DNA of 64,000 nt from an uncultured virus (IMG/VR IMGVR_UViG_3300020281_001373) (IMGVR_UViG_3300020281_001373), one strand, 5' to 3'. Shown: positions 7 through 63,920, numbered from the stretch's first letter. Notes: generated by a model not told the origin, from the letters alone. A program made the numbers and translations.

Positions 7-657
7 ATGGCATATAAAGGTTATAGAAAACCATTCGTATTTAGAGGTTCAGACTCAGAGACATCTCTGCAGTATGTAGGATCTATTGATACGACTACCA
101 CTGGAACTACTGATTCTGACGATAATACATTAGCTACAGTCGGCGGTTTTGGAGTCACTCATGCAGTCACTTCTAGAAAAGCAAGCCCGAACACAGTAGC
201 TACTAGCGATTCCGATGGAAACAAAGGAACAGTCAAATCATTAGAGATTCTAGAAGCACTGCCAGGTTGGTACATGAAAGGTGATTCATCTAAAGGACCT
301 ACATCAATTGCAGATTCTGATGGTGAAGGCGTATTCGGTACAGACCTAGGAACTTCTACTGATGTTCAGGTTGAAAATGGTATATACACTTTAAGCTTCG
401 CAACTAGAGATTCTGACTGTGGCATAGGAGACTATGTTGTAGCAGTTCAGGGTGGTGGAGTTTATTATGAAGGTTATGTCACTGGCAAAACAGATGGAAA
501 CAATGATATTCAGATTCGTCCGGTATCAGGAAACTGGCAAGGTTTTGACGGTACAGCAGCTTGGAAATATACAACTTCAAACCAACAGCATAAAGGTCAA
601 GATATTGAGTTTGCTGGAACAGTAGTAGATGCACCAGCAGCTAAATTTAAAATCTAA
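7..657 (+). CDS. Gly/Thr/Asp-rich putative virion structural protein with repeated DSD motifs
   Basis: 216 aa, beta-rich composition, 4 DSD + 1 DSE. Confidence 0.5.
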   Translation: MAYKGYRKPFVFRGSDSETSLQYVGSIDTTTTGTTDSDDNTLATVGGFGVTHAVTSRKASPNTVATSDSDGNKGTVKSLEILEALPGWYMKGDSSKGPTSIADSDGEGVFGTDLGTSTDVQVENGIYTLSFATRDSDCGIGDYVVAVQGGGVYYEGYVTGKTDGNNDIQIRPVSGNWQGFDGTAAWKYTTSNQQHKGQDIEFAGTVVDAPAAKFKI

Positions 658-669
658 AGGTAGTTAATT

Positions 670-1206
670 ATGGCAACAGCGGTTATTACTTGGGGCAGAA
701 TGAACCCACCAACTGCAGGTCATGAGAAACTGGTTAACAAAGTAAGAAAGGCTTCCCGTATTCATAAAGGGAAGCCTTTCATTTATCTAACAAAAACATT
801 CAAGAAACCCAAAGACCCACTTCCATATAGAGATAAACTGAAGCTTGCAAAGAAAGCTTTCGGTAATATAGTGCAAGATCATAAGAGTAGAACTATTATT
901 GAGCTTATGAAAGAGCTTGAAAAGAAATATGATGATATGGTATTGGTGGTAGGATCAGATAGAGTAGCAGAATTTGAAACACTCTTAAACAAATATAATG
1001 GAAAAGATTACACATATTCTAGTATAACTATAGTATCTGCAGGTGAAAGAGACCCTGACGCTGAAGGTGTATCTGGAATGTCTGCAAGCAAGATGAGACA
1101 GTTCGCAAAAGATGATGACTACGATTCTTTTGAGAAAGGTTTACCATCATTAATTAAAAAACCAGATGCTAAAAAAGCATTTGATACGGTAAGAAAAAAC
1201 ATATAA
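670..1206 (+). CDS. cytidylyltransferase-like (HxGH) nucleotidyltransferase, T4-like phage type
   Basis: WGRMNPPTAGH, VVGSDR and MSASKMR motifs. Confidence 0.85.
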   Translation: MATAVITWGRMNPPTAGHEKLVNKVRKASRIHKGKPFIYLTKTFKKPKDPLPYRDKLKLAKKAFGNIVQDHKSRTIIELMKELEKKYDDMVLVVGSDRVAEFETLLNKYNGKDYTYSSITIVSAGERDPDAEGVSGMSASKMRQFAKDDDYDSFEKGLPSLIKKPDAKKAFDTVRKNI

Positions 1207-1214
1207 AGGATATT

Positions 1215-1793
1215 ATGAAAACACAAGATGCACAAGTATACGAGATTCTAGAAGAACTAGATTCATGTACTACTAAACAAAGAAAAGTTGATTTAATCAA
1301 CACTAAATATAGCAATCATACACCACTACAGTATGTACTCAGATGGAACTTTGATAGATCTATAAAGTCTCTTCTACCAGAAGGTGAACCACCTTTTGAT
1401 AAGGAAAGAAAAGATGGTGATTCACCACAAGCTTTATGGTCTTATTTAAAGATGTTCCCTAATTTTGTAGACTCTGCACAGGGTAGACAATTACCAGAAT
1501 TAAAAAGAGAAAATCTTTTTATTGAAATGTTAGATGCACTAGATCTTGAAGAAGCAAATGTAATAGTGTTAGCTAAAGATGGTAAGTTAGATGAGAAGTA
1601 TAATATTACAATTGATGTAGTAAATGCTGCATATCCTGATATTGGATTAGTATCCGATCCTATCCCTGAACCTACTCCAAAAGAACAAAAAGAAGACCTA
1701 TTATCGCAAGCAAAGAGCATAAAGGAACAAGTAAAAGAATTAAATAGTCTAGCAAAAGAGCTAACTGAAAAAGCTAAAGCGATAACGGAGTAG
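1215..1793 (+). CDS. conserved T4-like phage hypothetical protein
   Basis: WNFD..SLLPEGEPPF..KRENLFIEMLD pattern recalled from marine T4-like phages. Confidence 0.6.
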   Translation: MKTQDAQVYEILEELDSCTTKQRKVDLINTKYSNHTPLQYVLRWNFDRSIKSLLPEGEPPFDKERKDGDSPQALWSYLKMFPNFVDSAQGRQLPELKRENLFIEMLDALDLEEANVIVLAKDGKLDEKYNITIDVVNAAYPDIGLVSDPIPEPTPKEQKEDLLSQAKSIKEQVKELNSLAKELTEKAKAITE

Positions 1794-2309: not shown

Positions 2310-3695
2310 ATGTGTGTAGTTGCTGCAAAGCACTTTAAAGGCCACGGTTGGATATTAGTTAAGAATAGAGATCGTAATTATCCAACTGAGGTAAAATTAG
2401 TTCAGTCACAAAGATCAGGAATCGAAAGATTATTCCTGCGAGATACCACTACTGGTTATAGTGAAGGCCTTAACGAAACAGGTCTATCAATAGTTTCTGC
2501 TTCAGTAATGGTAAAGAAAGATGAGAAAGAAGGTGGTGGTAGAGCATCTGATTCTCAGAACTGGACATCACCAGATGGTCAAAGAATTAGAAGAGCACTA
2601 TATCAAAAGACTGTAAAAGGTGCAATCAAATCATTATTAGATTCACAGATTCCTGGTAATACTCTTATTACAGATGGTAAAGAATGCTATCTTATAGAAT
2701 CAGCATATACAAACTACGAAAAACCAAATCAAAAATATCATAGTATAGTCAAGAAAATAAGTCCATCTGATATATGTGTAAGAACAAATCATGGTATTGA
2801 ACTACCATGGACTGGATATGATATGAAAGACCCTGATCAAAAGCCTGATAGAATATCATCTGAAAGCAGATTGAAGATAGCAACAAAGGAAGTTAAGAAA
2901 GCACAGGATCCACAAGCATTATTGAATGCTCTAGGTGTAGCACCTGAAAAAGACCCACAAATGAATCCAATAAGAATCAATAAGGGTAAAGGTGTAATGA
3001 GAACTACTGGTCAAATTATGTTGAATCCATTAGAAAGAGTATTTACATATAGACCCACAATGTCAGAAGTAGAGTTGAAGAACTACAATAAAATTAATCA
3101 GAAAGAATCTAAAACATTCTTTGAAATCATTTCAAATAGAGAGTTAATTAGTTTTGGTACATTTGGTGAAGACAGTAAGAGAGTACCTAGAAAACCTGGT
3201 CAAAAAGCAAATAGTAGTAAGCATAGTGATTTATACACTGATGAAAATCCTAAAGGTACTATACACGGTCTTGGTTTTACTGATGCAGCAAAAGCAAAAC
3301 AAAGTCTTAATAAGATTGAAGGTTCAGGGAAGACAGATGCACATAAAATGCAGGCAGCGATTGCAATGTCACAAAGAGCAAAGTTTGCCGCAAGAGATGC
3401 AAAAGACCCAGAGAAAAAGAAAGACTTAGCTGCAGCACATAAGACTTATCAATCATGGATAGATAAGAACAAAAAGTCTGAAGATTTTGCAGAAGGTACA
3501 GAGTCATGGGAAGCTGGTTATAAAAGACGTGTAGTAAAAACTACTAAGCCAGAACATAAGAACAAAGGTCTAATGTGGAGAATTAAGGGCAAGGATAGAG
3601 ATGAGATCAGTATAAAACTATATAAAGATAAACCATCCTTTGCAGAATTTAAAAAACAAATGAAAAGAGTTGCAGGACATGAATTTGGCGGTTAA
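2310..3695 (+). CDS. Ntn-hydrolase (N-terminal Cys nucleophile) fused to two C-terminal modules
   Basis: MCVVAA..KNRDR, EGLNETGLSI, VRTNHG; then a HSDLYTDENPKGTIHGLGF module and a basic terminal module. Confidence 0.7.
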   Translation: MCVVAAKHFKGHGWILVKNRDRNYPTEVKLVQSQRSGIERLFLRDTTTGYSEGLNETGLSIVSASVMVKKDEKEGGGRASDSQNWTSPDGQRIRRALYQKTVKGAIKSLLDSQIPGNTLITDGKECYLIESAYTNYEKPNQKYHSIVKKISPSDICVRTNHGIELPWTGYDMKDPDQKPDRISSESRLKIATKEVKKAQDPQALLNALGVAPEKDPQMNPIRINKGKGVMRTTGQIMLNPLERVFTYRPTMSEVELKNYNKINQKESKTFFEIISNRELISFGTFGEDSKRVPRKPGQKANSSKHSDLYTDENPKGTIHGLGFTDAAKAKQSLNKIEGSGKTDAHKMQAAIAMSQRAKFAARDAKDPEKKKDLAAAHKTYQSWIDKNKKSEDFAEGTESWEAGYKRRVVKTTKPEHKNKGLMWRIKGKDRDEISIKLYKDKPSFAEFKKQMKRVAGHEFGG

Positions 3696-5145: not shown

Positions 5146-5153
5146 AATAAATA
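5146..5153 (+). promoter_or_regulatory. T4-type late promoter variant AATAAATA
   Basis: one mismatch to TATAAATA, just upstream of ATG 5158; same variant recurs before other genes. Confidence 0.55.
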
Positions 5154-5157: not shown

Positions 5158-6045
5158 ATGAGTATATTAGATGGTCTCTCCAAAGATTATATAGGTGCTA
5201 ACAGCAAATTGTTAGGTGATTGGAAGCGTGTTAAATACAATTTTGACATACCGCTTTATTTTGATACTAATAATACTGAAATGATTAATTTTGGTCTTGC
5301 ATGGGATATTTGTGTGGCTGGTTGGATTGAAGTTTATCCAGCGGTAAGAGGTGTAAACATATATCATCCAATACATAATGGTAAAACTATGATGAGACTA
5401 GATGAGACCAGCTCATGCTTTGAAAATCAAGTGTTTACAAGACATCCACCATTTGAACCAATAGAATATATTACTTATGTACATGAAAATGAAGGTGGTA
5501 GGGATTTTGAATCTAAAGCTAAATCAGCAAATACATCAACATCACTAGATGTAGTTGACTATGAAATGCAGAATACATCTTTTGAATATAAGGCTGAAGA
5601 TAGAGGTACTAAAGATGCTCGTATATTATTAGGTCCACAAAGATTATTAGATTCAAACTGGCGTCTGCCAATTCCAGCATATAAGAAAAGACTAGTTAAA
5701 GATGATACTATTTATGATATTGGTTATCATTTCTCATCTTCTGATAGTTCAAAACAAATGTCTAGTAGATATGAAGAAATTATGTTTGCAGGTAAAGATA
5801 CATTTAACTTTATGAATTGGCATAACAAATATTTAGATGCACCAAAGTTAGATAAGGTAGTTAGAAGAATGGCACAATGTAGAGAGTTTCATGGTACACT
5901 TGGCGGTTTATCATTCTTAGCTTTAGCAATGAATATACCAACAACAATACATATCAATAAGAGAATGGTATGGACATCACAAAAGAAAGTATTTAAAATA
6001 TTAGCTAAAAGAAGTGGTGCAAAATTTGTAGAGGCAACACATTAA
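5158..6045 (+). CDS. putative GT-B glycosyltransferase (GT9-like C-terminal motif)
   Basis: FHGTLGGLSFLALAMNIPT resembles the heptosyltransferase GxDSGxxHLAxAxGxPT motif. Confidence 0.5.
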   Translation: MSILDGLSKDYIGANSKLLGDWKRVKYNFDIPLYFDTNNTEMINFGLAWDICVAGWIEVYPAVRGVNIYHPIHNGKTMMRLDETSSCFENQVFTRHPPFEPIEYITYVHENEGGRDFESKAKSANTSTSLDVVDYEMQNTSFEYKAEDRGTKDARILLGPQRLLDSNWRLPIPAYKKRLVKDDTIYDIGYHFSSSDSSKQMSSRYEEIMFAGKDTFNFMNWHNKYLDAPKLDKVVRRMAQCREFHGTLGGLSFLALAMNIPTTIHINKRMVWTSQKKVFKILAKRSGAKFVEATH

Positions 6046-7010
6046 TGGCTACGAGAAAATTAGATAACTTAGTGATTCAAATGGGTTGGAGAAATCCACA
6101 AAAAGGTTTTGCCATAAGACGTGCTGGTAATGCAAAAACCGATATGTCTGGTCACTACAATTTTGGTCTTGGTCATACATTATTAGGTATGACATTTATA
6201 AATGAACATTACCCAACCAAAGCTGAAAGAGATGAAGGTGTATATAACCCACATATCGAAGTACTATATCCAGATTCTGATACACAGGGAAATATATGGT
6301 TTAGATATGATGATGTAAAGACTATATTAGATTCAGATCTTATGAATGCACCTAACTTAGTATTCGAGCCATATACACCATTAACTGGAGACCCTAATTC
6401 TAGATTTTTAGGACTAGAAGATGGTACTGCTGTTTATGCTGCAGATTCTGAAGGTGAATTAACTGAAAACCTTGTACAATATAATTATGAGCAAGTACAA
6501 AGCTTTAACGGCACTGATAAAAATATAATAATGAAGACATATGATATATGGCAATCACAATTTGGTTTAAGTGGTAATAAATCACTATCGTGGGTAGCTT
6601 TAAGAAAAGATTTAAAAACTCGCTATCGAAGTGGAGAAGACCACTATACACATTGCTTTAAATTTGCAAATGATAGTGATGGTATGGGAGTATCTGCTGA
6701 AATGATAGCTAAATGGAAGTCAGAGAATGAAGCTACTGCATGGAACTTTGACTCAGATACATCCTCGTCACTCGAGGAAGTGGTCAAGAAGATGATGAAT
6801 AGTAGATATTATCATGGTACTTTAAATGGTTTGGCCATCCTAGCATTAGTCTGTGGTGTTCCTGCGACTGTTTATATGCCAGCATCAGTATCACTGACAC
6901 AGGAGCAAAAAGCTCTTAAAAAGATATTCTTACATAATGGTGGTACCATAATGACTCAAGAAAACTTCCTATTATCTAGCCAGCCAATGGATTTTGGTAA
7001 TAATATCTAA
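6045..7010 (+). CDS. putative GT-B glycosyltransferase, paralog of the upstream gene, carries DSD motifs
   Basis: YHGTLNGLAILALVCGVPAT; NFGLG shared with NFGLA of the paralog; 4 DSD + 1 DSE. Confidence 0.5.
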   Translation: MATRKLDNLVIQMGWRNPQKGFAIRRAGNAKTDMSGHYNFGLGHTLLGMTFINEHYPTKAERDEGVYNPHIEVLYPDSDTQGNIWFRYDDVKTILDSDLMNAPNLVFEPYTPLTGDPNSRFLGLEDGTAVYAADSEGELTENLVQYNYEQVQSFNGTDKNIIMKTYDIWQSQFGLSGNKSLSWVALRKDLKTRYRSGEDHYTHCFKFANDSDGMGVSAEMIAKWKSENEATAWNFDSDTSSSLEEVVKKMMNSRYYHGTLNGLAILALVCGVPATVYMPASVSLTQEQKALKKIFLHNGGTIMTQENFLLSSQPMDFGNNI

Positions 7011-11311: not shown

Positions 11312-11480
11312 AATCGTACCAGCATTCACTGGTGGATATAATATTATTGCAATAAATAAAACTAGTTGGAAAGAAGTTGCTGGCCCTTATATGGCAGAAG
11401 ATGAAGCAAAGACAGACTTAGATCTTTTCAAAAGCGGTGATGTAGTAGATAATGAAGAAAATAGACAAAATAGATCTTAG
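11286..11480 (+). CDS. hypothetical protein
   Basis: ORF in operon. Confidence 0.45.
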   Translation: MSNSTIKYKIVPAFTGGYNIIAINKTSWKEVAGPYMAEDEAKTDLDLFKSGDVVDNEENRQNRS

Positions 11481-12963
11481 AAAACTTCCTGTTCAGGACC
11501 TTACTGATATGAGTTATCAAGGTAAGGATGAGTGGATGGAAAAGGTCGATACAGAAACATTCGCTCAAGCAATCAACGAAATCTCTAGTTCATTCTGCAT
11601 AGCTAAATGGAAGCAGACTACATTGCATTTACAGAATGGTCACACACATTCATGTCACCACCCACAAACACATAAGGTACCATGGCAAGAGCTAACAGTT
11701 AGACCATCAGCATTACATAACACCACTAAGAAAATGATGATGCGTGATCAGATGAAGAATGGTGTCAGGCCAAGAGAATGTGAGTATTGTTGGAGAGTAG
11801 AAGATGCACGTAAAAAGAAAGGTGATGCCTGGTCAGATAGAATACATAAGAGTCGAGATCATTGGGCATTAAAGCATCTACCTGAAATACTAAGGAATGA
11901 TGCCACATACGATGTACCACCATCATATCTAGAAGTATCATTTAGTAATGTATGTAATTTTAAATGTGCGTATTGTGCTCCACATATATCATCACAATGG
12001 ATGACAGAGATACAGCACAAAGGACCATATCCAACATCAGCAAGATTCAATAACTTAGAATGGATAGAGCAAAATGGTCTAACACCAATACCAAATAATA
12101 AGCCGAATGTATATGTTGAAGCATTTTGGAAATGGTTTCCTGAAATATACCAAGACCTTGAAGTGTTTCGTATTACAGGTGGTGAGCCATTTCTATCTAA
12201 AGATACTATCAAAGTATTAGATTTCTTAACAGATAATCCTGCACCAAATATGGATTTTGCAATCAACACTAACTTATGCATACCTGACAAACTATTTGAA
12301 AATGTAATGGGTAAATTAAAAAGACTTGTTGTTGAGAAGAAGATTAAAAGACTACAACTATATACGAGTGCAGAAGCTCATGGTGATGCATGTAATTACA
12401 TTAGATATGGCATGGATTATGATAAGTGGTACAATAATTGCAGATGGATTATAGGCAATATACCAGATGTAGATGAGCATAATCCTACATCACTAACTAT
12501 AATGTCTACAATTAACTTATTGAGTCTACCATCTTATACTAAGTTTATTCAAGATGTTAGTCTCTTAAAGAAAGAAGCTAGTTTTAACTTAGATAATCCA
12601 AGACTCTATGAGAGAGCTACACCAATTAATTGTCCAGTACGAGTTGACTTTCCATATCTTAGAAATCCTGAGTTCTTGACAGTATTCCTATATCAAAATC
12701 CTGACTACAAACTAGAAGGTAAGAAATGGATCGAGGATGCGATATTTGCAGCTAAAATGGGTGGCTTTAATGTATTCGAAATAGACAGAATGAATAGAGT
12801 CCTAAACACCTATATGGGAGATCAGAGATGGACTCAGGTACAGCGCACTAAACACGAAAGAGACTTCAAAAAGTACATAATTGAATATGATAAGCGAAGA
12901 AATGTTGATTTTGATACAGTTTTTCCTGAGTTAAAATCATTCAAAGATGGTATAATCCTATAA
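11452..12963 (+). CDS. radical SAM protein with N-terminal Twitch/SPASM-like Cys cluster
   Basis: CNFKCAYC, TGGEP; N-terminal C..SCHH..CEYC. Confidence 0.9.
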   Translation: MKKIDKIDLRKLPVQDLTDMSYQGKDEWMEKVDTETFAQAINEISSSFCIAKWKQTTLHLQNGHTHSCHHPQTHKVPWQELTVRPSALHNTTKKMMMRDQMKNGVRPRECEYCWRVEDARKKKGDAWSDRIHKSRDHWALKHLPEILRNDATYDVPPSYLEVSFSNVCNFKCAYCAPHISSQWMTEIQHKGPYPTSARFNNLEWIEQNGLTPIPNNKPNVYVEAFWKWFPEIYQDLEVFRITGGEPFLSKDTIKVLDFLTDNPAPNMDFAINTNLCIPDKLFENVMGKLKRLVVEKKIKRLQLYTSAEAHGDACNYIRYGMDYDKWYNNCRWIIGNIPDVDEHNPTSLTIMSTINLLSLPSYTKFIQDVSLLKKEASFNLDNPRLYERATPINCPVRVDFPYLRNPEFLTVFLYQNPDYKLEGKKWIEDAIFAAKMGGFNVFEIDRMNRVLNTYMGDQRWTQVQRTKHERDFKKYIIEYDKRRNVDFDTVFPELKSFKDGIIL

Positions 12964-20377: not shown

Positions 20378-21625
20378 TCATGACATAATAGGTGGTAGGG
20401 GTAGGCTGGAGGATTCTCCATCTACCGTAGGTGGTTTATCGGTTAGTATCGGTTTGGCTCCCTCTATATTAGGTGGAGGTGGAGCATTGAGTACTATCTG
20501 TTTAGGTTTCTGTGGTCCATTCGGTCCGAAGTCACTCGGTATAGGTGAGAGGGACGGGGCTCCCTGTGTCACGGCATTTCGTAGAGCAACTCGTTCATTC
20601 ATTTCTCTCTCAAATTGAGCTTGTTGCTGCATGTCCGTAGGATATTGGATATTACCTCCCTGATCTATGAATCCCATCCACGGTACATGTATTCTTACGG
20701 GACCGGCTGGTGTCTCGATATCACATTCTAATATTGTATCTTTACCCTTCGGACCGGCCTTGATCTGTTCGCGTTTCGCCTGTATTCGAAGCTGCAGGAC
20801 ATCTTTCGGATGCATAAGATCGGGGTAGATGATATTCTCCTGACCGGCAAGCTGTCTCTCGATAGCGGCTCGTACATCATCCGGATTATCCTGATAGGCG
20901 GTACCTCGGACCTCGGGAGTTATCTGCTTAATATCGACCAACTCCTTATCCTCATAGATATGTTCCATGAGATTATCCCATGTTATCTGATGAAAGTTAT
21001 CAAAGCCAATCAATCTCGGAGGTGACTTACCATCGAGCGGGTCGACGTGATAGAACTGTGTATCTGGGAACTGTTTAATAATCCACTGATATCTGCGCTG
21101 CCAGTTCCTGAATGTAGGAGCACCGTTCAGAACACCTTCCTTCTTCTTTGCATAGTGTTTCTTACCCTCATAGAGGTTATTCATCAGACCGTTGTTATCG
21201 GGATTATTGATATCCGCCTCGGATCCGATACCAAAGAAGTCATTACCTATGAGAAAGATATGCTTGTGCTCATGTACCTTACAGGCCACATAGGTGGCGG
21301 ATGGACCGGCTGCGAACTTCTCCGGTGTAGGTATCTTCTTTGCACCGGAACCAGGCTTAGGAAACCACGTGTAGAACCAGTTGCTCATGGGCCAATTTGG
21401 TGAGGTCTTCAATATAGTTCTAGTCATCGGTTCATCCGAGGCCACTAGAACATGAGGTGCAAACTCCTCACGATAGAACCAATTACATGCGTAGAGGATA
21501 CCATACTGCTTGAGCTGCATGATATCCTTGCCCTTACGTGTGATACCATTACCGATTATCCACGCGTACTTGCCCTTGGGTAGGGTCTTCTTACCGGTTC
21601 CCTTCATCTTAGGTAGTTTCTGCAT
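20378..21625 (-). CDS. Maf/DUF115-like glycosyltransferase-related protein with Pro-rich C-terminal tail
   Basis: WIIGNGITR, YACN, LVASD, AGPSA, IFLIGNDF. Confidence 0.65.
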   Translation of the reverse strand: MQKLPKMKGTGKKTLPKGKYAWIIGNGITRKGKDIMQLKQYGILYACNWFYREEFAPHVLVASDEPMTRTILKTSPNWPMSNWFYTWFPKPGSGAKKIPTPEKFAAGPSATYVACKVHEHKHIFLIGNDFFGIGSEADINNPDNNGLMNNLYEGKKHYAKKKEGVLNGAPTFRNWQRRYQWIIKQFPDTQFYHVDPLDGKSPPRLIGFDNFHQITWDNLMEHIYEDKELVDIKQITPEVRGTAYQDNPDDVRAAIERQLAGQENIIYPDLMHPKDVLQLRIQAKREQIKAGPKGKDTILECDIETPAGPVRIHVPWMGFIDQGGNIQYPTDMQQQAQFEREMNERVALRNAVTQGAPSLSPIPSDFGPNGPQKPKQIVLNAPPPPNIEGAKPILTDKPPTVDGESSSLPLPPIMS

Positions 21626-22676
21626 CTATCCTCTTTATAAATTTATTTAGACCAGGATCGATATGTAGTAGCCGCTCCTGATTATGTTTACGGTCCTTTA
21701 TAGTATTATACCAAATTTCCTGCCATTGTTCATCACTCATGTGATATAATCTACTAATCTCCTCGTTCAGCATTCTTAATCTCTTGCCAGGGTCACGTTC
21801 GAGATCATACGAGTGGTCAATATACTTGTCAAAGAACTTCCAACCCTTACGTTTCAGATTGGTTATATGATGTTGTTGAGCCCAGTATAATGAGAGATTA
21901 CCTGATCTGAGAGCACGAAATGTCTTCTCACTTGCAAATGTAGAGAGTGGACCACCATTGATTCGTGTTTCTGATACGATCTCCAGTTGAAACTTTGCTC
22001 TTGCCTCATAGCTATCTACGAGTGCACCGTTCTGACCCTCGACAAGGTCCTGACCCTCACTGATGATTCTTTGTTTTACCTTACCCCAGTTATCAAAGTG
22101 TTTCTTTAGCGGTTCATTTATCTCAGGTCTCTCGAGTTCCGTCAGTATATGTGGACATCTGATCTCCATCTCCATATTACTATTTACTAGTCTCTTTAAG
22201 AGTTCGACACGATATGGATAGTGTCTTCTCATCCAGAAGAACATACGTTGTTTTCTATTTACAACCTGTTTGGATCTTTGATCCACGGGTACGGGTGGAT
22301 ATTTAGATATCTGTATGTCTACGAACTTCTTCCAGTATGGTACATATATCCAGTTCTTATCACATGACTGTGTAAGTGGTCCACTATTACAATGCCAGAT
22401 ATACATATTCTCATAGTTCTTAAACTCATGCTTGACATCAAACCACTCCTTAAACATATACTCCATTCCTACATTCAGTATGTATAGAGCCTTATTACCA
22501 TAGGAATCATACATTCTATTCATATAGTCACGTGCCTCGGTGTATCTTTCAAATCCACCAAGGTGTTCAAAGTATATGACCTGTATATTTTCTGCGAGTG
22601 TCTTTAGTTGTGGACTAAATGCTGAATCTGCTCTCAGAGCGGGTACTTCTGTATTGTTTATGTCTAGTGGAAACAT
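21609..22676 (-). CDS. putative glycosyltransferase (GT10/fucosyltransferase-like motif)
   Basis: EIVSET..FASEKTFRAL..IDHSYD. Confidence 0.55.
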   Translation of the reverse strand: MFPLDINNTEVPALRADSAFSPQLKTLAENIQVIYFEHLGGFERYTEARDYMNRMYDSYGNKALYILNVGMEYMFKEWFDVKHEFKNYENMYIWHCNSGPLTQSCDKNWIYVPYWKKFVDIQISKYPPVPVDQRSKQVVNRKQRMFFWMRRHYPYRVELLKRLVNSNMEMEIRCPHILTELERPEINEPLKKHFDNWGKVKQRIISEGQDLVEGQNGALVDSYEARAKFQLEIVSETRINGGPLSTFASEKTFRALRSGNLSLYWAQQHHITNLKRKGWKFFDKYIDHSYDLERDPGKRLRMLNEEISRLYHMSDEQWQEIWYNTIKDRKHNQERLLHIDPGLNKFIKRIDAETT

Positions 22677-23836
22677 TCTGTGGTACCATACTTTATAATC
22701 TTCTTGGTTCGAGGAACATCAATGTCATATTCCTTATCTCCCCAAGGATCGATGAGTATAGAACCATCAGCAACATTATCTATTATGAACTGTGTAGGTC
22801 CTCTACTACAGAGATACACAGCGGGTTCTTCTAGATATTTCTCATAATGAATCTCTTGTTTATTAAACATATCCATTTGTTCCTCTATATCTTCTAACCA
22901 TGCGGCTACGAGAAGAGATGGAGAACCATCGAGTAAATCAGATTCTTTCTTGAATCCATTCTCTAGGAATACAATAGGTAATTCAAATGTAGTCAGAAAG
23001 TCTGACATCTTCTGTGCCTGGAAGTCCCTCGCCTCCATCACGGCTGCAAATAAATCATACTTTAATTTAATATCAGCTGATAATTTTCTAAGGGCTATGT
23101 TGTCTCTAGGGTGACATGGACCACCATCTCCTAGACCTGGTCTCATGTACTTATCACTTGTAATTCTTTTATTAGATTTGGCTAGTGCATTAGCCACTTT
23201 CGAAGCATCCATGTGGCCAATCTCCATGGCCATATCCTGTATCATATTAACAAATGAGATCTTCATTGATATGAATGTATTGTAGAATACCTTTATGCAT
23301 TCGGCTTCTTCATATGTACCAGTTTCCCATCTTACTGGTGCAGTAATTATATTCTGATAGAATGCTATCAGTTCTGCTCTATCTCCTGGCTCACCACCAG
23401 CAATCATCATTTCAGGATTTAAGAAGTCTTCTTTTACGGTACCCATTGCGATAAGATATGGGTTATAAACTAATCTGTAGTTCTTTGGTATGTCCATCAA
23501 ATGTTTTCTAAATGTAGTTGGTAGTACAGTTGATATGACCACAACGAGAGCATCTGGTTCTGCATAGTCATTGAGATCATTTAACACATCTTTTAATGCT
23601 TCATAGTCAAAGTCTACGGGTTCTAGATTGTATGTAGGTTTATCACCACCATAATCATCTTGATGTGGTGTAGGTACCGCAATAAAAATAGTATCAGCAC
23701 CTTCACATACTTCTTTCATATCAGTATTCATCTTTGTATCATGAATATGTACATCATAGTACTCATTCATAACTTCAGCAACTGGACCGCCGAGTTTACC
23801 AGCTCCGATGAATGCTACTTTCTTACCAGCCTCCAT
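22664..23836 (-). CDS. UDP-glucose/GDP-mannose dehydrogenase
   Basis: GAGKLG, AVPTP, VIST, YNPYLIAMG, GDGGPCHPRD. Confidence 0.9.
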   Translation of the reverse strand: MEAGKKVAFIGAGKLGGPVAEVMNEYYDVHIHDTKMNTDMKEVCEGADTIFIAVPTPHQDDYGGDKPTYNLEPVDFDYEALKDVLNDLNDYAEPDALVVVISTVLPTTFRKHLMDIPKNYRLVYNPYLIAMGTVKEDFLNPEMMIAGGEPGDRAELIAFYQNIITAPVRWETGTYEEAECIKVFYNTFISMKISFVNMIQDMAMEIGHMDASKVANALAKSNKRITSDKYMRPGLGDGGPCHPRDNIALRKLSADIKLKYDLFAAVMEARDFQAQKMSDFLTTFELPIVFLENGFKKESDLLDGSPSLLVAAWLEDIEEQMDMFNKQEIHYEKYLEEPAVYLCSRGPTQFIIDNVADGSILIDPWGDKEYDIDVPRTKKIIKYGTTECFH

Positions 23837-24312: not shown

Positions 24313-24320
24313 TATTTATT
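24313..24320 (-). promoter_or_regulatory. late promoter variant AATAAATA
   Basis: immediately upstream of ATG 24308. Confidence 0.5.
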
Positions 24321-28669: not shown

Positions 28670-28687
28670 ATTTTCTCCTTGCTATAT

Positions 28688-28924: not shown

Positions 28925-28963
28925 ATTATTTGGTACTCCTTCTTGATATATTAATTATACTCT

Positions 28964-29809: not shown

Positions 29810-29812
29810 AAC

Positions 29813-30291: not shown

Positions 30292-31617
30292 TTAAGCAAA
30301 AAATTCTTCTAGTCCAGATGATTTTTTTACTATAAGAGTGTTTTTAGTTTTATTAATTATATCTGTATACACATCAATGGCATCACAATGTGATTTCCAA
30401 AACTCAAATGCTTTGTGTCTTTCTTCATCACGTTTAACATTATCTGTTGCATACTCTGAAAGTATATTTGCAACTGTATTGTAATCTGTACCTTCTTTAT
30501 TTCTATGAGCCCATGTACCATAATCTCTTTGTTTAAAATCATCTGTCAGAAATATAGTACCACTATCTAAACAACTAATTACCGGATCACCTATCTTATT
30601 GTGAATTATATGAGCACCAAAATGTTCGTGAAATATAGGAACTGTACCAGCACCTAAACAATCTGAATGACAGTATTCTATATTAGCTCCGTACTGTTCA
30701 GGCTTGAGATGATATAGATCAGAACCAAACATAGACTTTGCCATTCTTAACATCATGTCGTGGTGTTGATAACCTGGATATAGATAGGCACCTTTCATTT
30801 CTTCTTCAGCACCATATTCAAAGTCACCAGTTTCACCATATTCTTTTTCAGGTCTAAACTTATTTACTACATTCCACCTTGTAGATGGATCGTTATCATC
30901 TTTATATAAGATACCTTTATATCCAATAGATGCTTCTAAACCTTCAAGTATTGTAATGAATCCTCTATGCATCATTTGTTCTTGATGAAAATCAATTAGT
31001 TGTTGTGGACCTTTCCAACCTGCAGATCTTCCAACCCATCTTATAATCTTTTCTTGTTCTTCAATTGGCTGCCAATACTTTTCTTTATTCTCATCAAAAT
31101 TATATCCTACACCCGCAGTTGTAATTGGAACTGTGATACCTTCTTTCTCACACCATTTAGCAAATGGGTTTGTAGTTGAATGAGTCATAATAACATCTAA
31201 ACATTGTAATACTTCTTTCAGTTTAGCATTACGATGAATTGATTGTATGTTATGGTCAACCTGAACAATGCTTTTATTAACATTAATTTTTTTTAATAAC
31301 TCTATGAAGTTGTCGACACATTGTTCAGGGTGACTTTTAGATGGAACAGAAAAGACAATCAAAGCTTCACACTTGTTAATCTCATCTATAACCTCAGTAC
31401 AAGTCATTAGATCAGGAAACTTCTTAGTAGTTTTACTAATCTCTGACCAATCTGCTCCTCTAAAATAGTTTACATCAAACTCCATGGAGTTTTGTCTTGG
31501 CCACACTTTATCCATAGTGGCATAGACTTTTACACCCATAAGTTTTTGGAATTCTACAACATTCTTCGTGACACCGCAACCTTCAACACCACGACCCATA
31601 AGTACTGCTACAGTCAT
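30292..31617 (-). CDS. agt: DNA alpha-glucosyltransferase homologue (T4 Agt-like)
   Basis: MGRGVEGCGVTK, SVP, DH..S..RN, RWVGR..WKG, EGLE, IEY.H..GTVPIF. Confidence 0.85.
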   Translation of the reverse strand: MTVAVLMGRGVEGCGVTKNVVEFQKLMGVKVYATMDKVWPRQNSMEFDVNYFRGADWSEISKTTKKFPDLMTCTEVIDEINKCEALIVFSVPSKSHPEQCVDNFIELLKKINVNKSIVQVDHNIQSIHRNAKLKEVLQCLDVIMTHSTTNPFAKWCEKEGITVPITTAGVGYNFDENKEKYWQPIEEQEKIIRWVGRSAGWKGPQQLIDFHQEQMMHRGFITILEGLEASIGYKGILYKDDNDPSTRWNVVNKFRPEKEYGETGDFEYGAEEEMKGAYLYPGYQHHDMMLRMAKSMFGSDLYHLKPEQYGANIEYCHSDCLGAGTVPIFHEHFGAHIIHNKIGDPVISCLDSGTIFLTDDFKQRDYGTWAHRNKEGTDYNTVANILSEYATDNVKRDEERHKAFEFWKSHCDAIDVYTDIINKTKNTLIVKKSSGLEEFFA

Positions 31618-32519
31618 TTGTTTTTACCTCTTTCTAGATTATACTGATCTACACACATATCTTCTAAACTCTTTGTTAGTGTAATCTTATCTGATAGTTT
31701 ATCTACAACAGAACATTCTGCATCACCATCACGTCTTTCAGTCTTTACAATATTTATGTTTTTACCTGTAGCTTTCTTAAAAGAATCAACAACTTCAAAC
31801 ACACTATAACCTGTGTTAGAACCAAGACATTCGTATGGTGTATTTGTTGGACCATCTTTAACAGCATTACATATTGCATTTGCTAAGTCTACAACATGTA
31901 CATAATCTCTAATACATGTACCATCGCGTGTATCATAATCTGTACCGTATATTTCTAAATAATCTCTTTTACCACAAGCAACTTCAGCTGCAACTCTAAT
32001 TAAATGTGTTGATGGACCTATTTGTTTGTGTACACCATCTGAACCAGATACATTGAAGAATCTAAAGATTGTATAACCACTTGCTTTTTCTTTGATTATA
32101 TCTTCAGCAGCAACTTTAGATTTAGCATAAGGTGATGCCATTTCCCATGCGGCTGATGTAGATGCAAATATAATATGTGCTTGAGGAAATACTTCACATA
32201 CTGCTAGTGTACCCATTACATTAGTCAGATAATAATCTGCAGGTCTTTTCATACTTTCTGGTACTACAGACAGACCACCTAAATGTACAACTGCATCATA
32301 ATCTGGCCATTGTTTTCCCATAGGAGTCTTTAATGATTGACGTCTATATACTTCTAAAACACTGAAACCATGAAAATCATGTAAGTATTGACTTACATCA
32401 TTCTTATCTTCGCCATGAACATCAACATCCAAGCCATCGATTTTTACACCTTGTTCATGTAGTATCTTACATACGTGTGAACCGATATAGCCATTACATC
32501 CTGTGACTAAGACGTGCAT
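31614..32519 (-). CDS. NAD-dependent NDP-sugar epimerase (GalE-like)
   Basis: TGCNGYIGSH, YAKSK, RFFNV, DGTCIRDYVHVVDLA. Confidence 0.9.
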   Translation of the reverse strand: MHVLVTGCNGYIGSHVCKILHEQGVKIDGLDVDVHGEDKNDVSQYLHDFHGFSVLEVYRRQSLKTPMGKQWPDYDAVVHLGGLSVVPESMKRPADYYLTNVMGTLAVCEVFPQAHIIFASTSAAWEMASPYAKSKVAAEDIIKEKASGYTIFRFFNVSGSDGVHKQIGPSTHLIRVAAEVACGKRDYLEIYGTDYDTRDGTCIRDYVHVVDLANAICNAVKDGPTNTPYECLGSNTGYSVFEVVDSFKKATGKNINIVKTERRDGDAECSVVDKLSDKITLTKSLEDMCVDQYNLERGKNK

Positions 32520-32914
32520 ACTCGTTTCCTTAAATCTGAAGATGAGAATCTATGTTCTCTTTTATTAAAGTACAATGCTATACCTCGTTTCTTGCATATA
32601 TCTTTTCCAGTAAAATCTTTTTCTTTATACTCTTCACCAAGAATTCTTACATCAATAGTATATAGTTCTAATATATCTTCTAAATCTTTTTCACTAGCAT
32701 AGGGAATAATCTCATCCACATACTTAACTGCTTTTAGTTGTGTATATCTTTCTACAATAGTTTGTATTGGTGAGTTCTTTTCTTTTCTATCTAGTGATGG
32801 ATCGACTTGTAAACCACAAATCAAATAGTCACATTGATCTTTAGCATCTCTTAACATTTGTACATGACCAGCATGTAATAAGTCAAATGTAGAACAGGTG
32901 AAGCCGACTTTCAT
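32507..32914 (-). CDS. glycerol-3-phosphate cytidylyltransferase-like (TagD family)
   Basis: FDLLHAGH, VDEIIPY, FSSSDLR. Confidence 0.85.
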   Translation of the reverse strand: MKVGFTCSTFDLLHAGHVQMLRDAKDQCDYLICGLQVDPSLDRKEKNSPIQTIVERYTQLKAVKYVDEIIPYASEKDLEDILELYTIDVRILGEEYKEKDFTGKDICKKRGIALYFNKREHRFSSSDLRKRVCTS

Positions 32915-35276: not shown

Positions 35277-35279
35277 TAT

Positions 35280-35795: not shown

Positions 35796-35812
35796 TAGAA
35801 GAATGAACTTAT

Positions 35813-53150: not shown

Positions 53151-54251
53151 ATGCCAAAAGATTTTTACAGCCTAAGATACCCAGAAGATCTTGGAACGGA
53201 TGCTTCACCTAATTATGTGACATTCTCGCCAATGGATATGAAATATGCACCAACTGAATATGGTAATCCAGTCGATCGCGGCAGTGGTGGTCTATTTGGT
53301 GGTGGAGGCGGTGGTGGTCTTGACATAGACTTAGGTGCTGGTAATCCATTTTCACAACTAGCAAATGCCGTTGGTGGTCAACTAACTAGTCTTGCAGATG
53401 CAGCGCTAGATTCAATTGATGCTATCGGTAGTATATTTGAATCTGGTTCCTTATCAAGTGCAGCAACAGCATTTGGTAAGATAGTAAATGGTAAGGTACG
53501 TATTGGAGATTTTATAGTTTCATCTGGAATTAAGACAGATGCACCACAACTAAATACATTAGGTTCTATATCTTTATATCTACCACAACAACTTACATCT
53601 AATACAAGTGCTAACTATGAGAATAAAGAATTAGGTGCCGTAGGTCAAGTTGCACTTGAAGGTTCTATATCAGATCAATCAGGTGTTGGTAATTTTGCAA
53701 AAGCACTTATTGGTGAAACAGTAAAAAGAAGCGGTCAGTTAGGAGATATATTAGCTATACAACAAGGTGCAATTGTAAATCCATATTCATATCAGGTATT
53801 TGGTGGAATGCAACACAGACAATTCTCATATACATTTGACTTTGTACCTAAAAATAAAAAAGAAGCACAAGAAGTTGCTAATATATGTGATATGTTTTTA
53901 TTTCATATGCTTCCAGCAAGAGGTATGCCTGGAAAAGAACAAGATGATAAGGTTGCAACTGCTGAATCTTTCCAAGAAGTTGAAGGTGAAGATAATCTTT
54001 CAGCAACAGGAGAACTTTTAGAGAGCAAACATTTCTTAAAAATGCCATGTCAGTGGGATATTACATATTACAGAAATGGTAATAGATTATCAAACTACAT
54101 ACAAGAACCTAATAGATGTTTTTTAGATTCATGTAATATTACTTATGGTGGAGATTCACAAAATCTTTTACATACTGATGGTGCACCAGTAAAAACTACT
54201 ATGGAACTAAGTTTTACTGAGATAGAACCATTAGTTCAGGGTGCAACATAA
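53151..54251 (+). CDS. gp48: baseplate tail-tube cap gp48
   Basis: LRYP, LYLP, NP..FGG..RQFSYTFDFVPKN..EA, LSFTEIE. Confidence 0.85.
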   Translation: MPKDFYSLRYPEDLGTDASPNYVTFSPMDMKYAPTEYGNPVDRGSGGLFGGGGGGGLDIDLGAGNPFSQLANAVGGQLTSLADAALDSIDAIGSIFESGSLSSAATAFGKIVNGKVRIGDFIVSSGIKTDAPQLNTLGSISLYLPQQLTSNTSANYENKELGAVGQVALEGSISDQSGVGNFAKALIGETVKRSGQLGDILAIQQGAIVNPYSYQVFGGMQHRQFSYTFDFVPKNKKEAQEVANICDMFLFHMLPARGMPGKEQDDKVATAESFQEVEGEDNLSATGELLESKHFLKMPCQWDITYYRNGNRLSNYIQEPNRCFLDSCNITYGGDSQNLLHTDGAPVKTTMELSFTEIEPLVQGAT

Positions 54252-54907
54252 TGTCATACTTTCAAAACTTTCAAAGATTAGTATATCAATTTCCTGATGA
54301 TATAAAAAGAGTTATTACTGATCTATCAATCAGACCTAAATTCAGGGATAATGTTTTAGAGAATGCTAATAATTTTGAATTCTATAATTGTAATGATGGA
54401 GATACACCAGAGATTATTGCTTATGAACAATATGGTGATTCTAATATGCATTGGGCAATATTAATTGCAAACAATGTTATGAGTATCTATAATGATTGGG
54501 TGAAAGATCAGGCTCAATTTAAAGAATTTTTATTTCAAAAATATAAAACACAAACTGATAGTGATGGAGCTACAGTCACTTTAACAAGAACTGGAGTCAC
54601 AGAGTTTACACAATTTGTTGGTACATCTTCAAATGATTTTTCTAGCTATGTGACTGGTACAACTGTAAGAACTAGACCATCTCATTTTGAGGATACAAAT
54701 AAAGTTTATTACTCTTATGATAGTATTGTAAATAATGGTTCTGGTAAAGATGCATTTGGAAATGGAATATCCTATCCAACTGTATCTCCAGTATCGATAG
54801 AAACTGTAGAAGATAGATTGAATGAAGAAAAAAGAACTATCATTATTCCTACAGAAGAAGTAGTCGAGAAAATGCGTAAAGAAATCAAAGAGTATGTAAA
54901 TGGATAA
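54251..54907 (+). CDS. gp53: baseplate wedge gp53
   Basis: MSYFQNF, GDTPEIIA..YGD..HWAILIAN, NEEKR.I. Confidence 0.88.
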   Translation: MSYFQNFQRLVYQFPDDIKRVITDLSIRPKFRDNVLENANNFEFYNCNDGDTPEIIAYEQYGDSNMHWAILIANNVMSIYNDWVKDQAQFKEFLFQKYKTQTDSDGATVTLTRTGVTEFTQFVGTSSNDFSSYVTGTTVRTRPSHFEDTNKVYYSYDSIVNNGSGKDAFGNGISYPTVSPVSIETVEDRLNEEKRTIIIPTEEVVEKMRKEIKEYVNG

Positions 54908-61788: not shown

Positions 61789-62090
61789 ACACCAAAACTT
61801 TCACCACAACCACATGCGGCTGTAGCATTAGGATTGTTTATTACTAATTGTGAACCAGCAAACTGTTCAACATAATCTATTTCAGAACCATAGATATACA
61901 TCTCAGCAATCTTATCTACAACAATAGTATCTTCAATTAGTACACCATCATCTGTTGAATCTGTAAATGTCCATGAATATTCAAAGCCAGCACAACCACC
62001 ACCTTTCATAGATAGATGCGCGTACTTTTTATCCTGATTACTAATTTTTTCAGTAATGTATTGTTTAGCTTGTGGAGTTATACTAAGCAT
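61785..62090 (-). CDS. iscA: Fe-S carrier IscA/HesB
   Basis: GGGCAGFEY, NPNA..ACGCGESF. Confidence 0.92.
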   Translation of the reverse strand: MLSITPQAKQYITEKISNQDKKYAHLSMKGGGCAGFEYSWTFTDSTDDGVLIEDTIVVDKIAEMYIYGSEIDYVEQFAGSQLVINNPNATAACGCGESFGV

Positions 62091-62662
62091 TAATTAAAGG
62101 TCTTTCCTGTAAATTGAGCTGAACCGCCAGTGTCTTCAATTGTAAATGTATCAAATGAAGATACTGTTGTTCCACCTAATGTTAAAGAAGAACCTGTTAT
62201 ACTTGAAAATGTAGCTCTTGTAGCTGTCAGTGTACTATTAGTATCAAATGTAAGATTAGGTAAATTGACATCTGTCATGAATGTAATAGTGCCAGAAGAT
62301 TTTACATTCAGAGAACCTTCAATATCTACACTACCTCTAAGATATGTTTTTCCTACTTGGTTTGTTGTACCGTAGTTAGTCCAGACATCATCAGAATCTG
62401 TACCATAGAATATTGCAGTACCATTAAAACTATCTGAATCAGAACCAAGATAAACACCACCCTGTTTAATATCAATGGTTGAACCTGTAAAGATGGTAGT
62501 ACCTCTAATACCGACATTACCATTAAAGATAGATTGGCCCGTCACTTCTAATCCAGGAAGTGTGACACTCTCTGGATTTTCAAAACCAGTTAAATTACCA
62601 TCTTCATCAAATGATAATGAGCTGATTATATCTGCATGTTTTCTTGTTTTACTCTTAGCCAT
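62090..62662 (-). CDS. putative virion fibre/appendage protein with DSD motifs
   Basis: Gly/Thr/Ser-rich beta protein; termini resemble the neighbouring gene. Confidence 0.55.
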   Translation of the reverse strand: MAKSKTRKHADIISSLSFDEDGNLTGFENPESVTLPGLEVTGQSIFNGNVGIRGTTIFTGSTIDIKQGGVYLGSDSDSFNGTAIFYGTDSDDVWTNYGTTNQVGKTYLRGSVDIEGSLNVKSSGTITFMTDVNLPNLTFDTNSTLTATRATFSSITGSSLTLGGTTVSSFDTFTIEDTGGSAQFTGKTFN

Positions 62663-62675
62663 ATATTATTTAATC

Positions 62676-63920
62676 TTAACTAGGGTCCATAAACTGAAAT
62701 GTAGCAACTGTTGAACCAGTTGCGTTTATAATAGTAAGGTTATACTTACTTGGTATTGATACTTTTTGACCAGCAAGTGTAAACCCATCACTATCAAAGT
62801 TTGCACGGCCTTCATTACCTTGTAATGATAGAGTACCATCAGAGTCTGCAATATTACCAGTGACGGTCATATTAGTTCTTCTTGACCTATTTCCAAAACT
62901 GCCATCACCATCTGAATCATATAATGGTGCAATTTTAAATGTTCCAGTACCTGTAAGTGGACTTGAAGTAGAGTTTAAAAATCTTACATATGATTTACCA
63001 ACTACTTGCTTTGGTTGAATAAATGAACTCATTGCTTGTTCATTTTGAGCATTCATATTTTGTCTGTTTTGACCACCTTTCTGTGTATCATAAGAGCCAT
63101 CATCTTGTCTTTCAAGATAAAATCCCGAGTCTGAATCTGAATCATCTCCTAAGAATCCGAATGTGACATCAGTTGCTTTAAAAATTACTTTACCTTGTAA
63201 GTCTAATGTACCAAAACTTACGAATACAGTATTCTCAGAGTCATGCACGTTTGCTGCACTTTTTGGATAACCAAATTGTAATGGTGTAGTTTCACCAGAA
63301 ACTCTTGCAATATTGATAGTTTGACCACCTTGCTTTCTTCCAAAAATTACATTAGAACGCTCGACATATCTACCAATCTTCTTTTTTATTAGAAAATCAT
63401 TTGCAATGCTCGTGCCATTTGCATAGAGTGAATCAGAATCCAGTGGAAACTTTCTATGCGCGTTTATCATATTATAAACTCTATCAGTAGTTGGGAAAAT
63501 ATTATCATCTCCCTTAAATAAGTATTGTCCTTTGAATGTTGTAGTTGTATCTGAATCTGAACCTAAAATAGCATCACGAAAACCTGACCTATAAAACTGC
63601 GTGATTTCTGCTGCATTAGGGAACATTTCACCAACAATAGGGTTATTAGTAGAAGAAAATCTATTGTATAAGTCTGAATCTGGTTGATTTTGTAAACCCT
63701 GTAGAATTCCTCTCGATGTCCTGTAAAAATCGTCTGTCTCATTTGAATTGTGTGCTATCTGGAAACGACCTACGTTAAGCTTTCCAAATTTTATTGATGT
63801 ATTATTACTGTTTCCAAAAATTACGGCATCAGAATCATCAGACAAATAGAACTTACCACCAGGACCAGTGGGATTTGAGATATTTGCTACTCTTCTTGTT
63901 TTAGATATTTTTCGTGCCAT
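62676..63920 (-). CDS. putative virion fibre/appendage protein with many DSD motifs
   Basis: 9 DSD occurrences + 1 DSE in 414 aa. Confidence 0.55.
   Translation of the reverse strand: MARKISKTRRVANISNPTGPGGKFYLSDDSDAVIFGNSNNTSIKFGKLNVGRFQIAHNSNETDDFYRTSRGILQGLQNQPDSDLYNRFSSTNNPIVGEMFPNAAEITQFYRSGFRDAILGSDSDTTTTFKGQYLFKGDDNIFPTTDRVYNMINAHRKFPLDSDSLYANGTSIANDFLIKKKIGRYVERSNVIFGRKQGGQTINIARVSGETTPLQFGYPKSAANVHDSENTVFVSFGTLDLQGKVIFKATDVTFGFLGDDSDSDSGFYLERQDDGSYDTQKGGQNRQNMNAQNEQAMSSFIQPKQVVGKSYVRFLNSTSSPLTGTGTFKIAPLYDSDGDGSFGNRSRRTNMTVTGNIADSDGTLSLQGNEGRANFDSDGFTLAGQKVSIPSKYNLTIINATGSTVATFQFMDPS

Follow-up and report, generated by a model that had tools for sequence, protein, structure and literature searches.

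An Asp-Ser-[Asp/Glu] tag, possibly a serine-modification sequon, on outer virion proteins of one clade of marine T4-like phages

A tripeptide, Asp-Ser-Asp (DSD) or Asp-Ser-Glu (DSE), together written D-S-[DE], recurs in proteins encoded by the uncultured virus IMGVR_UViG_3300020281_001373, of which we analyzed a stretch of 64,000 nucleotides (the window). We consider it about an even chance (probability near 0.5) that the motif is a selected surface tag, probably a sequon for serine modification. The original prediction, made from the sequence of the window, had read DSD as a modification sequon and had tied it to particular sugar genes. The strict letters, free flanks, position in loops, restriction to one clade and conservation of the motif bear out the first part, but we found no support for the link to the sugar genes.

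Strictness and distribution of the motif

We first considered the motif inside the window, where 98 greedy open reading frames (ORFs; 20,684 amino acids, aa) contain 22 DSD, 19 of them in four proteins. A recount returned exactly the DSD and DSE numbers per protein that had been given in the original prediction. DSD ranked first in enrichment among the 8000 tripeptides (22 against 5.97 expected from per-protein composition; Poisson P 3.6e-7). The comparison with a shuffled background that had been proposed gave the same picture, as none of 20,000 shuffles reached the observed DSD count in the 216-, 321- and 414-aa proteins, and 106 of 20,000 composition-preserving shuffles reached that of the 190-aa protein. 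It was noted that serine within the motif is encoded by TCT, TCA, TCC and AGT, which span both codon families, and aspartate by GAT and GAC. Because the serine codons vary, selection acts on the peptide and not on the DNA; a cause at the DNA level (a methylation or restriction word) is ruled out by the mixed codons of both residues. The motif had also been described as not being a tandem repeat, which is right: the flanks from -7 to +9 lie within about 2-fold of background, the spacing is irregular, and the sites are isolated, with DSDSD only occasional and no long tandem SD repeats.

The strictness of the motif was examined in the 18 proteins with at least two motifs (10,052 aa), which carry 143 DSD and 45 DSE, or 188 D-S-[DE]. 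The near-miss words in this set were 2 D-T-[DE], 1 E-S-[DE], 3 N-S-[DE], 2 DSN, 6 D-A-[DE] and 4 D-G-[DE]. The middle residue of D-x-[DE] was serine in 188 cases and any other residue in at most 7. After D-S, the next residue was D in 143 cases and E in 45, followed by A (5), I (4), T (4), L (3), V (2) and M (1), with none else above 5. Calcium binding had been named as the main alternative, and canonical loops do not explain the motif: among 148 DSD, the spacing of a calcium loop appears as a following xD in 15 and a preceding Dx in 11, and DxDxDG occurs five times. This profile is that of a sequon and not of a generic acidic or calcium loop.

The genome from which the motif comes is that of a T4-like myovirus, with 34% G+C in the window. 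PHROG and Pfam scans of the window identified gp32, a gp59-like loader, gp33/gp55-like late factors, the baseplate hub, lysins and gp5-, gp48-, gp53- and gp54-like proteins. They also returned auxiliary genes, namely a CsgF/CsgG curli operon, a CHASE2 cyclase, a TonB-dependent receptor, an alternative oxidase, two radical SAM proteins and sugar-nucleotide enzymes. The DNA matches among deposited phages were only short, at ~70-73% identity, to Pelagibacter phages HTVC008M and Mosig, and the gene content agrees with that of the pelagimyophages of Zaragoza-Solas et al. (PMC7029224). From position 20,735 of the window onward, the IMG/VR contig G002 (108,915 bp, CheckV 61%) has the identical sequence, and it continues for 65.6 kb beyond the window end; the counts by gene block that follow cover the window and this extension.

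The outer tail/fibre block was found to contain 167 D-S-[DE] against 9.6 expected (18 proteins, 9739 aa), and the sheath-to-head block 12 against 4.3. The hub and inner baseplate block held 2 against 1.6 expected and the non-virion blocks 14 against 12.8, with ten of these 14 in the 216-aa and 321-aa proteins of Table 1. We found no D-S-[DE] in gp6, gp25, the tube, portal, scaffold, protease, terminase or any of the replication genes, and one in the major head protein.

The original prediction had called the carriers putative virion proteins. Carriers that are virion proteins do exist, mostly beyond the window end, and the motif-rich outer tail/fibre block that runs past it opens with the gene of the 414-aa protein. 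The virion assignment is unproven for the 216-aa protein, which has no PHROG or Pfam family and few homologues, and doubtful for the enzyme-like 321-aa protein. The single DSD of the gp53-like protein is at chance level.

Table 1. Motif carriers and sugar genes in the window, with the carriers found past its end (residue and nucleotide positions as counted in the protein and in the window; GT, glycosyltransferase; NDP, nucleoside diphosphate)
Position (nt)	Strand	Product	Motifs	Motif residues	Motif positions (nt)
7..657	+	216 aa, Gly/Thr/Asp/Ser-rich, no assigned family; outside virion modules	5 D-S-[DE]	DSD 36, 68, 103, 135; DSE 16	52-60, 112-120, 208-216, 313-321, 409-417
5158..6045	+	295 aa, possible GT-B/GT9-like enzyme, lead only	0
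6045..7010	+	321 aa, enzyme-like	5 D-S-[DE]	DSD 77, 96, 210, 236; DSE 134	6273-6281, 6330-6338, 6444-6452, 6672-6680, 6750-6758
20378..23836	-	'Maf-like' (20378-21625), 'GT10-like' (21609-22676), NDP-sugar dehydrogenase
30292..32914	-	operon: AGT-like GT-B glycosyltransferase, GalE-like epimerase, small nucleotidyltransferase
54251..54907	+	gp53-like baseplate wedge subunit, phrog_232	1 DSD (QTDSDG)		54557-54565
62090..62662	-	190 aa, Thr/Gly/Ser-rich; adjoins fibre/baseplate block	2 DSD	DSD 75, 89
62676..63920	-	414 aa, no assigned family	10 D-S-[DE]	DSD 29, 81, 122, 161, 260, 262, 335, 359, 376; DSE 227
beyond window end		703-aa protein, in no known family	18 DSD, 1 DSE
beyond window end		783-aa protein, in no known family	23 DSD, 8 DSE
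beyond window end		gp7-like wedge protein, 1432 aa	19 DSD, 13 DSE
beyond window end		gp8-like wedge protein	6 DSD, 4 DSE
beyond window end		VrlC-like protein, 2085 aa	8 DSD, 2 DSE
beyond window end		280-aa protein	5 DSD, 0 DSE
beyond window end		neck protein	7 DSD, 1 DSE
beyond window end		gp15-like sheath stabiliser	4 DSD, 1 DSE
beyond window end		gp9/10-like connector	7 DSD, 3 DSE
beyond window end		724-aa protein	17 DSD, 6 DSE
farther on		sheath	5 DSD, 0 DSE
farther on		gp13-like adaptor	3 DSD, 1 DSE
farther on		126-aa protein	2 DSD, 0 DSE

Clade limits, conservation and position on the sheath

We compared the motif across related records, using one ORF caller for all observed/expected comparisons between them. 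The motif-rich records were G002, its closest relative G003 (80-90% identical; 152 kb, 85% complete), G004 from a distant motif-rich subclade, G005, G006 and the 35-kb fragment G007, the more distant of these being fragments that are 19-38% complete. Records without an excess were G008 (167 kb, 100% complete), G009 (near complete), HTVC008M (complete) and the fragments G010 and G011. The ratio of observed to expected D-S-[DE] was 7.4 in G002, 6.0 in G003, 6.3 in G004, 6.0 in G005, 11.2 in G006 and 8.9 in G007, compared with 1.02 in G008, 1.02 in G009 and 0.75 in HTVC008M. Among 80 loci retrieved with the sheath protein, the nearest-ranked 23 were all at 2.2-11.4 times expectation; 56 of the remaining 57 were at 0-2.3 times, and one near-identical partial locus was at 3.8 times. 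The excess is confined to one clade of marine T4-like (pelagimyophage-like) phages. Orthologues in the motif-poor phages have no motif where the proteins of this genome carry 22 (the four pairs formed with G008) and 34 (the five formed with HTVC008M), and the folds therefore do not need the motif.

Proteins with fewer than two motifs contained 7 D-S-[DE] against 18.4 expected in this genome, 8 against 21.8 in G003 and 4 against 9.9 in G004, compared with 24 against 30.2, 26 against 28.5 and 20 against 26.5 in the motif-poor genomes. These values are only suggestive of a depletion from non-target proteins, as the cut at two motifs biases the test and the non-virion blocks, defined by location, showed 14 against 12.8.

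The sites are well kept among near relatives. Compared with G003, 181 of 188 sites were retained, with 96.4% identity at motif residues against 83.3% elsewhere, and compared with G005, 70 of 74 were retained (91.8% against 73.0%). In the 414-aa protein, seven of ten sites were invariant over 25 aligned homologues down to 54% identity (D29-S30-D31, D122-S123-D124, D161-S162-D163, D227-S228-E229, D260-S261-D262, D359-S360-D361 and D376-S377-D378), and sites 81 and 335 varied by being either intact or wholly replaced, never conservatively changed. All five sites of the 321-aa protein were invariant in three homologues of 76-82% identity, and its remote homologue P0059 has six motifs. The 190-aa protein has a homologue in G003 that likewise carries two DSD. 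Sites 36, 68, 103 and 135 of the 216-aa protein were held in homologues at 52-54% identity, in which two new DSDs arrive as insertions of 2-4 residues.

The distant subclade showed a different pattern. Only 7 of 26 sites were retained in G004 and 14 were new, a turnover that rests on alignments at 36-64% identity, and this record also has motif-rich proteins with no similarity to those of our genome. New sites arise in small insertions, both in the sheath and in homologues of the 216-aa protein. Density is maintained while positions drift, as expected for a tag. It was also noted that at 28068-37984 of G004 (locus L038) six proteins between terminase and sheath carry from 2 to 19 motifs apiece; five are without a BLAST match beyond the G004/G007 subclade and one has a 39%-identical partial match in motif-poor G009. 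From this pattern, the tag sits on different proteins in different subclades.

The sheath provided a structural view of the sites. A 12-residue insertion holds sites 101 and 107, and motif-poor sheaths have in its place a short loop or an unrelated domain. Site 283 is part of an insertion of 8-10 residues private to this subclade, and sites 151 and 184 are in variable loops. The sheaths of other subclades have extra DSDs in insertions of their own. An AlphaFold model of the sheath (predicted local distance difference test score, pLDDT, 73.6; predicted TM score, pTM, 0.71) matched T4 gp18 (3j2m_U, Z 29.8 over 474 residues; 3foa_A, Z 29.3). None of the five sites was in a strand; three were in loops with pLDDT below 50, one caps helix 152-157 and one is in loop 182-189. 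By sequence, residues 4-98 and 305-596 align to gp18 3-93 and 346-656, and from these borders all five sites fall in the non-conserved middle of the protein, which we take to correspond to the outward-facing domains I and II of gp18.

Candidate writers and neighbouring genes

We then sought enzymes that could act on the motif. The original prediction had linked it to two groups of sugar genes, and the link is not supported for either. The 'GT10-like' and 'Maf-like' genes had no match in Pfam, NCBIfam or PDB sequences, which leaves these labels without support. The NDP-sugar dehydrogenase (PF00984 and PF03721; TIGR03026 at 135.6 bits, under the cut-off of 189.8) has an orthologue in motif-poor HTVC008M (43% identity, 95% coverage). 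The 'GT9-like' pair is a weak lead, retained on the strength of its ESM Atlas neighbours, where the nearest named cluster of both proteins was viral GT9 heptosyltransferase (score 0.94, 176-182 shared features; PF01075 in 32% of its members). Against it, neither PF01075 nor any Pfam family matched 5158-6042, 6045-7007 or four remote homologues at E<=1, the pair had no PDB sequence match, and the 295-aa protein had no NCBIfam match.

The two proteins are paralogues over their last 64 residues (BLASTP 31% identity over 64 aa, E 5e-11). Homologues of the 321-aa member were found only in very close relatives (five loci), and a remote homology search gave seven matches in 1.84 billion representatives, none with a Pfam family accounting for the protein.

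Both groups had been placed behind late-type promoters. The AATAAATA words do exist, at 5146-5153 (+) and 24313-24320 (-), but both stand only 4-5 nt before ATG, and the TATAAATA-like word WATAAATA occurs 14 times against 24.8 expected from shuffling, and is thus not commoner than chance. These words are therefore not evidence of late promoters.

The other sugar genes form the AGT-like operon. Its glycosyltransferase (PF11440, 103.8 bits; phrog_2888) occurs in G003 at 87% identity, and was not found in four motif-rich fragments or in five no-excess records (G008 and G009 whole, the others around the sheath). The GalE-like epimerase scored 212 bits on TIGR01179 (cut-off 262) and 51.5 bits on heptose epimerase. 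Its small nucleotidyltransferase scored 75.5 bits on RfaE-II against 69.2 on TagD, both under cut-off, and for the two small nucleotidyltransferases of the window the scores were 75 bits with RfaE domain II (cut-off 181.5) and 57-69 with TagD. Family scans of the window proteins returned neither an isomerase nor a kinase for heptose. The operon is a candidate writer untied to the motif, and could equally well serve DNA glucosylation. At 24316-25423, a thymidylate-synthase-family gene adjoins a MazG-like pyrophosphatase; together with the AGT-like gene (30292-31617) these would fit a hydroxymethyl-pyrimidine-plus-sugar modification of DNA, an alternative job for the sugar genes.

Co-occurrence of glycosyltransferase genes with the motif had been proposed as a check. 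The AGT-like gene, the GT9-like pair and the 'GT10/Maf-like' genes are all present in motif-rich G003, but were found only there. Because the distant motif-rich records are so incomplete, nothing is concluded from the absence of these genes from them. The glycosyltransferase-like genes of the window and a PF05118 oxygenase beyond it, which is taken up below, are no more than candidate writers.

Several other genes of the region were noted. The curli-type operon at 34726-40980 encodes two small paralogues (phrog_18771), CsgF, CsgG, a 228-aa protein, a FecR-like protein and a CHASE2 adenylate/guanylate cyclase; identity with the HTVC008M genes is 60-75%, and the operon is known from pelagimyophages (PMC7029224). 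A complete TonB-dependent receptor (Plug and beta-barrel) at 17173-18837 lies in a stretch of 0.40-0.41 G+C, compared with 0.33-0.35, and its lack of a homologue in G003 suggests recent acquisition from a host. Large radical SAM proteins are encoded at two places, 11452-12963 and 40938-42515, one of the twitch-domain type (NF033640, 283.5 bits, over cut-off) and the other B12-binding and PhpK-like (91.5 bits, below). Several paralogues of the twitch type occur in motif-rich G004, as they do in motif-poor G008 and G009, and these genes therefore do not track the motif. An auxiliary set for oxidative stress and respiration comprises an alternative oxidase (PF01786, E 2.7e-65), an Fe/Mn superoxide-dismutase-like protein and a peroxiredoxin, at 44074-44637, 1797-2309 and 29813-30250. 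The 461-aa protein at 2310-3695 only weakly resembles the C45-family autoproteolytic acyltransferase/hydrolase (NF040521, 27.8 bits, well short of the cut-off).

Beyond the window, the fibre genes of G002 are separated from terminase by an island of some 20 small enzyme genes (71783-85939). Among them are those for the PF05118 oxygenase, a short-chain dehydrogenase, a fatty-acid-desaturase-like protein, an AurF-like di-iron oxygenase and a cytochrome c, along with one that weakly matches GNAT-like acetyltransferases (17.7 bits, under the cut-off). The position of the island matches the 'host recognition cluster' of pelagimyophages (PMC7029224).

Competing explanations and implications

The evidence on letters, location and clade suggests a tag that selection would have placed, and would keep, on surface loops of outer virion proteins in one clade, including fibres, the outer baseplate wedge, the neck, the sheath surface and a few others. 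Its reader would most likely be an enzyme specific to the clade that acts in the cytoplasm and modifies the middle serine during assembly or ahead of it, and the outcome would be a chemically uniform coat on the tail. We tentatively extend this to a private sequon on every outward-facing tail, neck and fibre protein, through which a phage enzyme may coat the whole tail with one group (a sugar, phospho-sugar or hydroxyl). The hosts would then be probably SAR11-like, and the proteins of 7-657 and 6045-7010 would be parts or by-products of the system.

Because SdgB O-GlcNAcylates the bare DSD tripeptide (PMC8561734, on a minimal peptide), O-glycosylation is our leading guess for the modification. 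The staphylococcal system of SdgB and SdgA, which acts on Ser-Asp adhesins, resembles the present case in having serine between aspartates, many sites per substrate and, for SdgB, a cytoplasmic enzyme (PMC8561734, PMC3794999). The SdgB substrate, however, is a disordered stalk of long tandem SD repeats, whereas here isolated tripeptides lie in loops of folded virion proteins. Here, in addition, glutamate is accepted at the third place, and the GT4 family of SdgB (PF00534) was found in none of four motif-rich records and in none of 57 window proteins scanned, but was present in motif-poor G008; the same search was positive in 14 of 14 known genomes.

TibC and Aah of the BAHT family are GT9-related cytoplasmic enzymes that glycosylate many serines of a beta-rich surface protein (PMC4358343). 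The GT9-like lead at 5158-7010 and the RfaE-domain-II-like nucleotidyltransferases of the window recall this system, from which the window differs in lacking a PF01075 match and in having a GalE-like rather than an HldD-like epimerase. To our knowledge, the BAHT acceptor sites are not a D-S-[DE] word.

The general O-glycosylation sequon of Bacteroidota, D-(S/T)-(A/I/L/V/M/T), is used in the periplasm. It is likewise three residues long with aspartate first and a hydroxyl residue second, but here the third residue is D or E and threonine is excluded (2 D-T-[DE] against 188 D-S-[DE]). Virions, unlike the periplasmic Bacteroidota system, are assembled in the cytoplasm. In work by Freeman et al. 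in 2023, glycosyltransferases encoded by mycobacteriophages reportedly decorate virion proteins, with sites on siphovirus capsid and tail-tube proteins; we know of no description there of a tripeptide sequon across the outer tail. None of the SdgB, TibC and mycobacteriophage precedents matches in enzyme family, substrate architecture or sequon. The pelagimyophages of PMC7029224 are of the same kind as our phage, with a CsgF/CsgG curli operon, rfaE-like, UDP-glucose dehydrogenase and radical SAM genes and a variable island among the tail genes. That paper reads their glycosyltransferases as modifiers of host lipopolysaccharide, and the passages of it considered here contain no virion motif.

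A number of points weigh against a serine-modification sequon. Modification at D-S-[DE], an enzyme as reader, serine as the modified residue and a sugar as the modification are all inferred. No enzyme tracks the motif convincingly, the SdgB family included. The 321-aa protein, which is probably an enzyme rather than a virion protein, carries the tag. Exposure was judged on the sheath only, from secondary structure and pLDDT: the proposed mapping of sites on predicted structures placed the sheath sites in loops, but the AlphaFold model of the 414-aa protein, built with 25 homologues, had a pLDDT of 28.9 and was unusable. The low identity of the G004 alignments counts here as well.

In a first rival reading the motif would bind cations, its carboxylates and serine hydroxyl holding seawater Ca2+ or Mg2+, or its carboxylates would simply acidify the tail surface, so that the particle is stabilised or kept from sticking with no enzyme involved. 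The motifs are acidic and in loops, a few resemble calcium loops (DSDGDG at residue 335 of the 414-aa protein), and the nearest cultured relative, a Pelagibacter phage, points to a marine origin. The strong conservation of positions among near relatives would fit cation binding too. We nevertheless consider this unlikely. At generic DxD sites the middle residue can vary and Asn or Glu can serve as ligand, a pattern at odds with the near-miss counts above, in which glutamate opens the motif once and threonine replaces serine twice; the spacing of calcium loops is as sparse as described; orthologues in relatives carry no motifs; and in the distant subclade positions move while density stays.

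A second possibility concerns the 2-oxoglutarate (2OG)/Fe(II) oxygenase of family PF05118 at 74877-75644 of G002, which could hydroxylate an aspartate of the motif, with serine serving for recognition. It scored 27.6 and 36.0 bits against a cut-off of 22.6, and the HxD...H iron triad (H127, D129, H180) and R190 are invariant in four orthologues. The family was over cut-off in four of five motif-rich records (G002, G003 twice, G004 and G005, not the 35-kb fragment G007) and in none of five no-excess records (G008, G009, HTVC008M at 17.3 bits, and the fragments G010 and G011). Its orthologue also belongs to a set of roughly twelve genes of the window or contig that BLAST matched in G004 and in none of the three motif-poor genomes. 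A search for the family returned ten loci, of which six are in records already covered, and L139 and L141 are motif-rich. The two distant homologues, L143 (44% identical, on a fragment of a far more distant phage) and L144, are uninformative, because neither a recognised virion protein nor an excess occurs in their flanks. As the positives all come from one clade, the association may be plain ancestry, which also weakens the oxygenase as an enzyme lead for serine modification, and aspartyl/asparaginyl beta-hydroxylase is called core to all pelagimyophages in PMC7029224. Asp hydroxylation leaves the strict serine unexplained, and we regard it as improbable.

It is similarly hard to credit that the motif, instead of being an enzyme substrate, docks a further protein or a ligand, such as a decoration protein, a chaperone of assembly or a polymer of the host surface. 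Strictness, exposure and clade limit fit such a site equally well, and no writer is tied to the motif. A three-residue site with free flanks, however, offers little binding energy or specificity to a non-catalytic partner, and about 190 sites on about 18 unrelated proteins, one of them enzyme-like, fit a catalytic reader better. A compositional or chance artefact of Asp/Ser-rich fibre proteins has next to no probability: the carriers are indeed rich in D, S, G and T, but it is refuted by the shuffles of three proteins, sister tripeptides that are not raised, and conservation of motif residues above background.

Our literature search on the DSD/Asp-Ser-Asp motif, phage tails and O-glycosylation found no description of the motif in phages. 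If the reading as a modification sequon is true, the tag would direct a virion-wide, sequon-directed post-translational coat, which is not described for any phage. Should the motif be a cation site instead, it would still be a lineage-specific solution to particle stability in seawater. If it marks modified serines, it would offer a clean, testable sequon, and the motif count would be a simple sequence marker for predicting exposed virion ORFs. Modified serines would then represent a general chemistry for coating virions, in large phages that are among the most abundant of the ocean, and such a coat could affect host recognition, particle stability, stickiness toward marine polymers, and escape from recognition by hosts or grazers.

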